DNA from: an uncultured Bacilli bacterium
GTDB taxonomy: Bacteria > Bacillota_I > Bacilli_A > RF39 > UBA660
Assembly (NCBI GenBank): GCA_947632325.1
Contig: CANROU010000002.1
Span: forward strand, 43,840-107,839
DNA: 64,000 nt
Direction of reading: 5' to 3'
This document shows, in pieces, positions 34,269 to 46,165 of this stretch. The stretch's first letter is position 1. The number at the start of each line of letters is the position of its first letter. Under the pieces are notes generated by a model, which was not told the DNA's origin, ran no database searches, and saw nothing but the letters and a program-made list of their open reading frames with translations. Position numbers and translations under genes: made by a program.

Positions 34269-34345
34269 GTCTCAGTAGCTCAGCTGGATAGAGCATCGCC
34301 CTTCTAAGGCGAGTGTCAGGGGTTCGAATCCCTTCTGGGACACCA
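34269..34345 (+). tRNA. tRNA-Arg (anticodon UCU)
   Basis: Cloverleaf GTCTCAG/CTGGGAC acceptor, GCTC-AGCTGGATA-GAGC D arm, anticodon stem TCGCC/GGCGA with loop CTTCTAA, T arm AGGGG-TTCGAAT-CCCTT, encoded CCA. Confidence 0.85.
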
Positions 34346-34382
34346 TTATAATAGGAAACTCGCAACGTTCGAGTAAAAATAG

Positions 34383-35154
34383 AAAACGGCTTGCCAAAAG
34401 ACCGTTTTTATGTTATTATGAATATGTCAAGGAAACTTGCATAAAATAAAAAAGGATACATTTGATTGTGTGAATCAAATGCAATCCCTTGAGGGTAGCA
34501 TCTGAAATCAACAAACGTTGAAATCAGATGCTTTTGCTATGTTAGAAGTAAAATGATTACAACTAAGAATAGGAGTAATATTATAATAAATTGAGAAAAT
34601 TCTCTTTTTGTCATAAATATCACCACCTTTCTTTTATCGTTTGATAAATAGAAAGGGAAAGCACCTGATATATTTCAAATGTATCCAATAATATTATATC
34701 AAACAAACGTTCCCCATACAATGTTTTTATACTAAATGATGTTAATTTTGAAAATACACTTATTTTATAAAACGGCTTGTAAAAAGGTCGCTTTTATGTT
34801 ATGATGAATACGTCAAGGAAACTTGCATAAAATAAAAAAGGATACATTTGATTGGGCTAATCAAATGCAATCCCTTATTTAGGATAGCATCTGAAATCAA
34901 CAAACGTTGAAATCAGATGCTTTTGCTATGTTAGAAGTAAAATGATTACAACTAAGAATAGGAGTAATATTATAATAAATTGAGAAAATTCTCTTTTTGT
35001 CATAAATATCACCACCTTTCTTTTATCGTTTGATAAATAGAAAGGGAAAGCACCTGATATATTTCAAATGTATCCAATAATATTATATCAAACAAATGTT
35101 CTTCATACAATGTTTTTATACTAGATTATGTTAATTTAGAAAACACACTTATTT
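34383..35154 (+). repeat. Tandem direct duplication of a 386-bp noncoding unit (copy 1 34383-34768, copy 2 34769-35154), each copy carrying two conserved hairpins
   Basis: Near-identical copies with point differences. Each has CATTTGATT-loop-AATCAAATG (loops differ: gtgtg vs gggct) and GCATCTGAAATCAAC-aaac-GTTGAAATCAGATGC followed by TTTTGCT (terminator-like). Confidence 0.8.
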
Positions 35155-35186
35155 GATAAGATTTGATAAGATAACTTTAATTCTTA

Positions 35187-35633
35187 TTGAAAATCAAAAA
35201 TAATTATGCTATAGTTATAATAGGTGATAGTATGTTGGTACCTAAGATATATGATGAAGTTATTTATTATGTTTTAATTCCTATATTTTTAGTTTTAATA
35301 TTGTTTGGTGTTGTCTTAATTGTGGTAACATATAAAGAAAAAAAGGGCATAGATTTAAAAAGACGTTTTAGAATCAATTATTGGGCTGATATCGTTGGCA
35401 TTATTTTTGGAGCTCTTTTGTTTTCAGTGGCACTTGGTTTTGCTTGCGCTATGATTCAAAAATTATATGTTCACCAATTACTTAGTAGCTATTGGTTGTT
35501 ATCTATAGCCTTGGGCATTTTACCAATAATATGTTTTACAGTTATGCTTTTGTGTATTATTAGATTAATACGCTTGTTAAGAAAGCAGGATGATGATGAA
35601 AGGATTGATAGTCATGAAGAAAAAATCGATTGA
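35187..35633 (+). CDS. Small integral membrane protein (4 TM), unknown function
   Basis: Hydrophobic helices; ends with acidic tail. Confidence 0.35.
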   Translation: MKIKNNYAIVIIGDSMLVPKIYDEVIYYVLIPIFLVLILFGVVLIVVTYKEKKGIDLKRRFRINYWADIVGIIFGALLFSVALGFACAMIQKLYVHQLLSSYWLLSIALGILPIICFTVMLLCIIRLIRLLRKQDDDERIDSHEEKID

Positions 35634-45925: not shown

Positions 45926-45974
45926 ATATGTTATAATAAAAGAAAAACAAAGAAGTTGAGGAGTATATTCTAAA

Positions 45975-46165
45975 GTTTTTAGTAGAGAATTCATGGTTGG
46001 TGAAAATGAATAAAACTAGAATAGAAGGTAGCAACAGAGTTGAATCCTTAAGTAAATAGAGGATTACGTTGATCGCGTTAAGATTATAAGTGTATATCTA
46101 TGATATAAAATAAGGTGGTACCGCGGGAACTCGTCCTTAAATTGAAGGAGGAGTTTTTTTCAATT
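45975..46165 (+). promoter_or_regulatory. T-box riboswitch leader of valS with terminator/antiterminator
   Basis: Conserved T-box AAGGTGGTACCGCGG at 46113-46127. Terminator helix AACTCGTCCTT/AAGGAGGAGTT plus TTTTTTT at 46126-46161. A loop uaaGUAaau (~46050) could carry a Val specifier. Confidence 0.75.

Follow-up and report, generated by a model that had tools for sequence, protein, structure and literature searches.

Putative type I toxin-antitoxin modules duplicated in tandem behind a tRNA-Arg gene in an uncultured Bacilli bacterium

[quoted passage not shown] One of the antitoxins, RatA, acts through a 3' duplex and RNase III and leaves the translation start region untouched (PMC4147584), and in the par system RNA I has a stem-loop at the Shine-Dalgarno (SD) sequence (5'-SL) and a 5' upstream helix (5'-UH) (PMC7472228). 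A polar C-terminal tail is common in type I toxins, and the signature of the Fst/Ldr family consists of a transmembrane (TM) helix, a conserved Trp, a highly charged C-terminus and a P/D/S/TxxxG(C) motif (PMC7472228). Tandem duplication of a short hydrophobic open reading frame (ORF) within one intergenic region is a hallmark of type I systems and an established criterion in searches for them (PMC2887945). Here we describe a duplication of this kind in a 64-kb stretch of contig CANROU010000002.1 (assembly GCA_947632325.1, from an uncultured Bacilli bacterium), the whole of which is referred to below as the window. Each repeat unit, lying behind a tRNA-Arg gene, is probably a complete type I TA-like module, so that the window would hold two in tandem. 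Their anatomy as gene pairs can be described with high confidence: it is conserved, and there is selection for RNA structure on both strands and for the ORF. The module family is new within a well-known kind and is absent from the databases and literature searched.

Tandem Repeats Finder returned one array, which spans 34383-35159 and has a period of 389, 2.0 copies, a match rate of 94% and a score of 1387. This bears out the first-pass annotation of this DNA, made from the letters alone, which had seen a 386-bp unit tandemly duplicated right after tRNA-Arg, although that length applies to copy 1 (34383-34768) and not to copy 2 (34769-35157), which has 389 nt owing to a 3-nt insertion. Both hairpins that it had described are present in each copy. 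The first, a perfect hairpin of 9 bp, is CATTTGATT-GTGTG-AATCAAATG at 34459-34481 in copy 1 and CATTTGATT-GGGCT-AATCAAATG at 34845-34867 in copy 2, with the stem intact and the loops different. The second is a long imperfect hairpin, GCATCTGAAATCAAC-AAAC-GTTGAAATCAGATGC followed by TTTT, at 34498-34535 and 34887-34924. A core of ~215 bp in mid-unit is 100% identical between the two copies (pairwise alignment), and all 25 alignment columns that differ are confined to the loop of the 9-bp hairpin and the spacer after it, to the flanking terminator and to the stretch upstream of the toxin promoter (the last ~60 bp). The repeat unit is far beyond chance, since about 55 other species-level genomes contain the whole unit of ~370 bp, and not the ORF alone, at 74-93% identity.

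The unit had been called noncoding. This did not hold, as each copy has on its minus strand a 25-codon ORF, conserved family-wide, behind a Shine-Dalgarno sequence. The two ORFs, at 34537..34614 in copy 1 (ATG 34614, stop 34537; ORF list, family conservation and placement control) and 34926..35003 in copy 2 (ATG 35003, stop 34926; ORF list), encode the identical hydrophobic peptide MTKREFSQFIIILLLFLVVIILLLT. It is 72% hydrophobic and has its own ribosome-binding site, and its single hydrophobic helix with a charged N-terminus would suit a putative membrane toxin. The near-consensus SD sequence, AAAGGTGGTGA, lies 5 nt upstream of the ORF (34630-34620 in copy 1, minus strand), and in the minimum free energy (MFE) fold it is sequestered by the hairpin CCTTTCTATTTATC-AAAC-GATAAAAGAAAGG (34656-34626). 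Further upstream the sequence of copy 1 reads as a toxin promoter with an extended -10 box (TTGTAT, 17-nt spacer, TG-a-TATAAT; 34693..34721), whose TTTGnTATAAT is at least 90% conserved among 41 modules. From its position the transcript is predicted to start at G34686, giving a putative toxin mRNA of ~242 nt (34445..34686, both ends predicted), the 3' end of which is hairpin 2, the hairpin that contains the 9-bp stem, read on the minus strand and followed by TTTTTTATTTT.

The extreme 5' end of this mRNA, GGATACATTTGA (34675..34686), can pair with TCAAATGTATCC (34465-34454) in a long-range 5'-3' helix; in the MFE fold the first 12 nt (GGAUACAUUUGA) pair with UCAAAUGUAUCC directly before the 3' U-run. 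In the same prediction a CCUUUCU...AGAAAGG helix closes over the SD sequence and the AUG region pairs with codons within the ORF. The minus-strand RNA 34685-34440 folds at -78.7 kcal/mol, compared with -37.2 ± 4.0 for shuffles (z = -10.3), and a second fold of the copy 1 mRNA gave -82.4 kcal/mol. The predicted probability of being unpaired is at most 0.14 at six of the seven SD positions, with one position at ~1.0, and at most 0.03 for the AUG. Copy 2 repeats this arrangement, with a putative mRNA at 34831..35075 that has the same fold (-82.4 kcal/mol), the SD hairpin at 35015-35045, the 5' strand of the long-range helix at 35064-35075 and, according to the homology profile, a promoter with its -10 box at 35087-35082 and its -35 box at 35110-35105, all on the minus strand. 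As modelled, the toxin mRNA fits a highly structured message with an occluded translation start, as in type I systems.

Homology between loci stops at the conserved right end of the element (...TTTAGAAAACACACTT), which in copy 2 spans 35082..35150 together with the promoter. Many modules (L008, L047, L061, L100, L105 and L119) have a common right end, TTTAGAAAACACACTTG, at ~110-150 nt upstream of the toxin -35 box. After it comes a palindrome, covarying from locus to locus (GCATATTGA-CAA-TCAATATGC against GCATAATGA-CATAA-TCATTATGC), that could be an operator, a terminator or the end of the element; the window (35137-35150) keeps the right-end sequence only as far as CACACTT.

On the plus strand the sequence has the features of an antisense RNA gene: a promoter on the opposite strand, a terminator, three hairpins, covariation and support from G·U pairs. 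The unit opens with a flanking hairpin (AAAACGG-loop-CCGTTTTT, 34383..34409 in copy 1) that has an A-run before it and a T-run after it and would be a bidirectional insulator or terminator, its loop holding the putative antitoxin -35 box. In a MAFFT alignment its stem has double-sided changes at six of seven pairs, yet only 63% of cells are paired. Promoter scans place the antitoxin promoter of copy 1, which again has an extended -10 box, at 34391..34419 (TTGCCA, 17-nt spacer, TG-n-TATTAT, here TGtTATTAT); across the 41 modules the -35 box always keeps its TTG, and the -10 box hardly varies. The putative antitoxin small RNA (sRNA) that would follow, ~112 nt at 34426..34537 with predicted ends, is supported by folding and by the covariance model, covariation and strand test described below. 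It is predicted to consist of a 5' hairpin with a GAAA loop (34426-34440), an A-rich linker, hairpin 2 (34454-34487), in which the 9-bp stem extends to 13 pairs, and the terminator hairpin with its U-run (34498-34535); the fold has a z of -4.6. The corresponding features of copy 2 are a flanking hairpin at 34769-34795 (alignment), a promoter at 34777-34805 (TTGTAA, 17-nt spacer, TG-n-TATGAT), a putative sRNA of ~115 nt at 34812..34926 (covariance model and fold), and within its fold hairpin 2, with loop GGGCT, at 34840-34873 and the terminator hairpin at 34887-34924.

The predicted sRNA thus converges on the toxin mRNA, stops at the toxin stop codon and overlaps the 3' untranslated region (UTR) by ~93 nt (34445-34537), an arrangement common to every Gram-positive type I system described (PMC4147584, PMC8594479). 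Within the overlap, either hairpin carries its U-run on a single strand, which suggests that the long hairpin terminates the plus-strand RNA and the 9-bp hairpin the minus-strand mRNA. An Fst-like second pairing site of the sRNA at the translation start was considered and rejected, the duplex energy falling within the range of shuffled sRNAs.

Further evidence for the two RNAs comes from the pattern of substitution across the family. In an alignment of 41 modules in mRNA sense (A2), 89.8% of the cells of the proposed mRNA structure are paired, against 38-44% with slid partners; 20 pairs show double-sided changes and none of 500 shuffles reaches any of the observed measures. The long-range 5'-3' helix is the best kept, with 99.4% of cells paired and both CG>UA and AU>GC swaps, while in the SD helix 94% of cells are paired, and its compensatory and G·U changes speak for the minus strand. 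Since a G·U pair becomes a C·A mismatch when the opposite strand is read, cells that are not Watson-Crick pairs show which strand is selected. The ratio of G·U pairs to mismatches is 12:3 on the minus (mRNA) strand and 3:12 on the plus (sRNA) strand for the long-range helix, 13:16 and 6:23 respectively for the SD-sequestering helix, and 8:40 and 27:21 for the 9-bp hairpin. The last counts favour the plus strand and make the sRNA likely, and the pattern as a whole points to structured RNAs under selection on both strands.

RNAalifold, applied to the plus-strand alignment, independently returns both hairpins, and at one pair 25 sequences have U-A and 16 have U-G. With a covariance model built on the plus-strand RNA (R1), 98 copies are recovered from 100 sources and, in the window, the two known ones only (148 bits for copy 1 and 145 bits for copy 2). 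In the sRNA alignment (A4) 94.1% of cells are paired, against 30-42% when slid, double-sided changes are seen at 30 of 31 pairs and the score is 0.457 compared with 0.166 for shuffles, the pair counts being inflated by the fitting of A4 to the model. The earlier argument that conserved stems with changed loops speak for a function at the level of RNA is therefore backed by family-wide covariation of the hairpins. As to what that RNA might be, an sRNA pair or a cis-regulatory leader had been proposed; the sRNA is supported by the plus-strand G·U counts, whereas pair and leader are not, the other RNA being a peptide-coding mRNA. The sRNA model also matches, weakly (33-34 bits), the toxin strand over the mRNA 5' UTR (L061:3147-3252, L076:7319-7424, L100:4078-4183, L050:4037-4135, L070:4720-4825). 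These matches indicate that the mRNA 5' leader mimics sRNA sequence (GGATACATTTGA..., TCAGGTGC), such that both can pair with the same 3' UTR, and suggest that the 5' end of the mRNA may itself compete with the antitoxin.

The peptide is too short for a search at the protein level and relatives were therefore sought by scanning species-representative genomes with a degenerate DNA pattern (Met-x-[KR]-[KR]-[DE]-[FY]-x-x, then 12 codons with T at the second position). A stricter version with 14 such codons matched only the two real ORFs in the window, where none was expected by chance. The genome scan gave at least 120 loci, and 115 of 124 pattern matches are ORFs of 21-38 aa behind strong SD sequences, falling into several subfamilies. 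MTKREFSQFIIILLLFLVVIILLLK is encoded in about 50 species-level metagenome-assembled genomes (MAGs) that bear the label uncultured Bacilli or Erysipelotrichaceae and derive from the gut of rabbit, ruminant, mouse, chicken and human; further subfamilies have peptides of 22 aa (MSKKDFLIVILLIIIILLIIYR), 27 aa and 30 aa. In total there are more than 100 related modules in genomes of uncultured gut Bacilli and in metagenomes, commonly in arrays of two to four, with up to four in 8 kb. Homology between loci starts about 35 nt after the tRNA and ends at the position equivalent to ~35150. Other subfamilies keep the same design in different sequence, for example in the 5'/3' complementarity GGAATACTTAGT/ACTAAGTATTCC, and the stem of the GAAA hairpin varies across subfamilies from CAAG/CUUG to UAAG/CUUA and GAAG/CUUC. 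One locus, L070, is syntenic with the window, having a GerM region of 68-78% identity, the same tRNA-Arg(TCT) and a single module, and the duplication in the window is thus lineage-specific; a scan of genome contigs using the GerM-like neighbour gene found no relative. Spread across phyla, as contigs labelled Muribaculaceae might imply (L011, L019, L029, L034, L043, L080 and L085), was rejected, these contigs having 23-32% GC and being probably mis-binned low-GC Bacilli. A phage- or plasmid-borne origin was likewise rejected: tblastn and blastn against phage and plasmid collections gave chance-level matches only, and the terminator hairpin and RNA core are absent from 2.9 M viral contigs.

Because the first set of loci had been chosen through the peptide, the ORF was tested on sets chosen by RNA alone. 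Among 23 covariance-model matches outside the peptide pattern, 15 have an SD-preceded hydrophobic small ORF (sORF) ending at the terminator, and new subfamilies appear among them (for example MKKRTFIIKVLRLIAIILLLLTLLVIAIKI). A 20-nt core of the sRNA 5' region is present in more than 120 metagenome contigs, including some from human gut; the strict type-A peptide pattern had no match in the metagenomes. Where these cores have enough flank, 69 of 97 are accompanied by an SD-preceded hydrophobic sORF at the expected place and on the expected strand, compared with control counts of 7 (wrong strand), 2 (other side) and 0 (shuffled). The matches that contain the sRNA but no ORF (L045:6176-6300, L066:5252-5373, L098:4278-4397, L016:4766-4887, L069:4185-4313, L055:7326-7453, L062:5225-5337 and L079:2665-2787) often adjoin an intact module, and that in L079 is a frameshifted copy with a read-through of 68 aa. 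They are probably orphan antitoxins or copies with a decayed toxin, as are familiar from TA loci.

The differences between the two copies in the window had been described as structure-preserving. The stems are indeed kept, and the loop differences are discrete alleles common to other species rather than drift. The segment comprising loop and spacer (34468-34497 in copy 1, 34854-34886 in copy 2) is only 75% identical between the copies; that of copy 2 is 100% identical to L049, L050 and L097, while the closest to copy 1 is L114 at 90%. The core is at most 96% identical to that of any other locus, against 100% between the window copies. Shared alleles together with an identical core look like a mosaic of discrete alleles on a homogenised background, which points towards gene conversion, or towards duplication with a later exchange of alleles, and away from drift. 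Antisense pairs usually make their first contact at loops. Plausibly, then, the loop and spacer alleles set the specificity of cognate pairing, and tandem copies with an identical core and different recognition-loop alleles would amount to a natural experiment on specificity.

Taken as a type I system, the module would work as follows. The extended -10 promoter on the minus strand would produce the ~242-nt mRNA for the 25-aa peptide, which would be kept silent and stable by the pairing of its first 12 nt with the last 12 before the U-tail, with the SD sequence buried by its hairpin and the start codon paired with codons in the ORF. The plus-strand promoter would yield the three-hairpin RNA of ~112 nt, perfectly complementary to ~93 nt of the toxin 3' UTR. 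This RNA may meet the mRNA through the complementary hairpin loops and the single-stranded A-rich and U-rich tails, after which the contact would zip into a long duplex to be cut by an enzyme of RNase III type, destroying the toxin mRNA as in TxpA/RatA. On loss of the sRNA, presumed to be the shorter-lived partner, residual mRNA would be translated. Given that no extra pairing of the sRNA with the translation start was found, the RatA model, with a 3' duplex and RNase III cleavage, fits best.

A number of findings weigh against this interpretation. Transcription, toxicity, duplex-triggered decay and any addiction function are what we infer by analogy from the anatomy. Pairing of the sRNA to the translation-initiation region is no better than random (-32.5 kcal/mol against -25.0 ± 4.4 for shuffled sequences, minimum -41.9), which leaves repression by decay as an analogy. 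The SD sequence and AUG are predicted to be closed whether or not the 3' UTR is occupied, and the predictions offer no route to activation. The first locus set was chosen by the peptide pattern, 8 of the 23 RNA-only matches are without an intact ORF (one being frameshifted), and within the 25-aa subfamily synonymous sites are also highly conserved, so that coding and RNA-level selection are inseparable there; the inflated pair counts of A4 belong here too. The peptides match no model in Pfam, NCBIfam, PADLOC or PHROGs, with only noise in Pfam and NCBIfam at E <= 10. Finally, MTKREFSQFIIILLLFLVVIILLLT differs from Fst in having no Trp, no PxxxG motif and no charged C-terminal tail. Highly hydrophobic toxins without a tail do exist, Ibs and ShoB being examples.

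The alternative that survives best, improbable as it is, holds that the ORF is the gene of a non-toxic small membrane protein, such as a modulator of a transporter, a sensor or a sporulation factor, with a cis-antisense regulator and no TA behaviour. The ORF, the antisense RNA and the structured mRNA would be equally compatible with it, the peptide is without the polar C-terminal tail common in type I toxins (PMC7472228), and its neighbours in the window are core sporulation and germination genes. What speaks against such a role is the behaviour of the family, which is multi-copy with arrays of up to four modules per 8 kb, occupies genomic positions that differ among species, includes copies with a decayed ORF and an intact RNA gene, silences translation of its mRNA very heavily and is commonly duplicated in tandem, as described for type I loci (PMC2887945). 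Together these properties are those of a selfish TA locus and not of a housekeeping small protein.

The position of the modules behind a tRNA gene bears on a second alternative. The sole tRNA in the window is tRNA-Arg(TCT), at 34269..34345 on the plus strand (ARAGORN; Rfam tRNA, 66.8 bits), and the modules begin about 38 nt past its CCA end. The intervening trailer hairpin, ACTCG-CAACGTT-CGAGT (34358..34374, plus strand), is not part of the module, as judged from the alignment of junctions and from tRNAs without modules. In the 25-aa subfamily 14-16 of 42 modules have a tRNA gene ending 35-40 nt before their start, with at least seven different tRNA species represented, and the adjacent tRNA is always in the orientation of the sRNA and convergent with the toxin (junctions in the window at 34346-34409 and in L007, L008, L047, L050, L055, L061, L077, L100, L102 and L114). 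The 22-aa subfamily instead has its modules upstream of tRNA-Gln(CTG), which shares the strand of the ORF (L018, L063, L095, L109). The sequence after the CCA (GATTGATAnnAAACTCG-loop-CGAGT) is also found behind tRNAs without modules, there with a U-run, from which it follows that it is the generic tRNA terminator of the clade. A trailer GATnGATAnnAAACTCG-loop-CGAGT(TTTT) is common to different tRNAs (34346-34379 in the window; flanks of L018:211-284, L028:1482-1555, L032:909-993 and L111:1764-1839). Where a module follows, the U-run of the trailer is replaced by A-rich sequence and the flanking hairpin of the module supplies a U-run. The post-CCA junction was considered as the left end of a mobile element and rejected, the same trailer occurring behind tRNAs without modules. 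Insertion preference, a safe haven or tRNA read-through are possible reasons for the gathering of modules after tRNAs. To the left of the modules in L057 (~2240-2300) and L072 (~2540-2600), where ARAGORN calls no tRNA, there is a junction '...TCGCACCA|GATTGATAG'; these look like remnants of tRNA 3' ends and may be attR-like leftovers of an integration into the upstream tRNA.

It is on such grounds that the unit could be seen as a mobile or recombinational repeat, similar to a miniature inverted-repeat transposable element (MITE), or as a tRNA integration scar, with hairpins that serve transposition or recombination of DNA. We regard this as very unlikely. It would account for multiple copies with discrete boundaries of ~400 bp and homology that stops sharply at both ends, for the one third or so of modules directly behind tRNAs of at least seven species, for subterminal hairpins at both ends and for the 'GCACCA' tRNA-end remnants beside the modules of L057 and L072. 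The window does not bear it out, and the integration scar suggested at first pass is not supported: the 64 kb contain no second tRNA-Arg 3' end (the best chance match is 11 nt), no integrase and no island, the sequence after the CCA is the clade's generic trailer, and the flanks are core genes, with EF-P, SpoIIIAH, GerE and GerM on the left and a GerA/GerAC/spore-permease operon on the right. Furthermore, the G·U asymmetries reflect selection on transcribed RNA of both strands, which a DNA-level function does not predict, and neither 2.9 M viral contigs nor the phage and plasmid collections contain the core. Mobility and TA function are mutually compatible, and this alternative is mainly a rival account of what the hairpins do.

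The first gene after the modules (35187-35633, plus strand) encodes a 148-aa multi-pass membrane protein with sub-threshold similarity to a Pfam holin (PF07332, 20.6 bits against a cut-off of 28.4), and the next two ORFs have no Pfam match. A T-box leader at 45941-46141 (plus strand, 127.7 bits, Rfam RF00230) is unrelated to the modules.

The recurrent placement after tRNAs raises the question of how the cassettes spread or are expressed. A wider, speculative scheme, which we consider rather doubtful, would see a superfamily of type I TA cassettes across gut Bacilli that are linked to tRNA terminators and built on one antitoxin scaffold (the 5' GAAA hairpin and A-rich linker) with many toxin subfamilies. 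Exchanged loop and spacer alleles would keep arrays of two to four modules orthogonal, and the cassettes would either home, by some route without a transposase, to the point in tRNA terminators where stem and U-tract meet, or use read-through from strong tRNA promoters to hold the antitoxin high. If true, this would be a new coupling of tRNA gene expression to an addiction module.

That the unit is purely noncoding, an sRNA pair or a cis-regulatory leader in which the short ORF is fortuitous, is scarcely credible. Such a view agrees with the covariation of the RNA hairpins and with nucleotide conservation in the ORF that extends to synonymous sites. It does not explain why an SD-preceded hydrophobic ORF recurs at the same place and on the same strand across subfamilies of wholly different nucleotide sequence, including loci found through the RNA only (69 of 97, controls 0-7 of 97). 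A sequestered SD sequence and a buried start codon are meaningful only in a message that is translated, and no downstream gene is in an orientation fit for a leader. As for the repeat itself, short-read contigs that carry the GerM neighbour (L001-L005, ENA/Logan) all end inside or just before the identical core, that of L001 at window position ~34550, and module repeats evidently break short-read assemblies beside tRNA genes. These breaks might suggest a collapsed or expanded repeat without any real duplication, an artefact with next to no likelihood since breaks in the core are expected of a true repeat, the copies are set apart by over 20 substitutions and a 3-nt indel, every one of them at unit edges, which an artefact would not create, copy 2 has a distinct natural allele seen in other species, and other assemblies, long-read MAGs and independent metagenomes among them, commonly contain tandem modules.

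A search of Rfam, which the first-pass annotation had proposed, matched no family except tRNA: on both strands there was nothing else at E <= 10 or at the gathering threshold, and no match to RNAII/par. Exact look-up in a collection of 15 billion protein sequences found none of eight family peptides, and no family peptide string was found verbatim in the searchable literature. The family would add to the roughly two dozen known, with a covariance model and a peptide pattern ready for use, and would extend type I systems into a poorly studied and largely uncultured lineage. More than 100 species-level genomes from uncultured gut Bacilli, and metagenome contigs from human gut as well, contain its modules, often arrayed.

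Among described systems, the enterobacterial ibs/sib, ldr/rdl and zorO/orzO-zorP/orzP loci resemble the window in having several near-identical modules per intergenic region with similarity that extends beyond the ORF (PMC2887945). They differ in being Gram-negative and in the position of the antisense RNA, which is fully inside the mRNA or 5' to it (PMC8594479). No sequence relationship links them to the window modules. Toxins of the Ibs type are very short, almost wholly hydrophobic and without a polar tail, like the window peptide. The TxpA/RatA, BsrG/SR4, BsrE/SR5 and YonT/SR6 systems of Bacillus subtilis are closer in layout, being convergent RNAs that overlap at their 3' ends only, by about 75-120 nt compared with about 93 nt here, and in bsrG mRNA the SD sequence is partly sequestered. 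As in RatA, the antitoxin has no complementarity to the ribosome-binding site, a feature that in RatA goes with duplex-triggered RNase III decay (PMC4147584). In B. subtilis, however, the antisense RNA also covers part of the ORF (PMC8594479), whereas here the predicted U-run ends at the stop codon (34535-34537). The B. subtilis peptides are longer (29-59 aa), end in polar tails and show no relationship in sequence, with no match in Pfam, NCBIfam or Rfam, and their loci are in prophage or skin elements, in contrast to the core genes and tRNAs that flank the modules.

Convergent promoters like those described here are found in the par system (Fst, RNA I-RNA II) of the Enterococcus faecalis plasmid pAD1 and in the Fst/Ldr family, to which SprA1/SprA1AS of S. 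aureus belongs. In par the antisense RNA has a second pairing region of the DRa/DRb type over the SD sequence and start codon, which is lacking here, and a single shared terminator, which is replaced here by two hairpins, each with a U-run on one strand. The partner of the 5' helix also differs, being in this case the mRNA's own terminator half, so that the helix competes with the local hairpin. The likenesses are several. In both Fst/RNAII and SprA1/SprA1AS the antisense RNA is on the 3' side, without overlap with the ORF (PMC8594479), as is predicted for the window, and both par and the modules have terminator hairpins of the two RNAs that are complementary and a small, single-helix hydrophobic toxin (here putative) with a charged N-terminus. 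Moreover, the SD-sequestering stem-loop and the helix over the extreme 5' end that characterise par RNA I (PMC7472228) are both present in the modules, where they covary.

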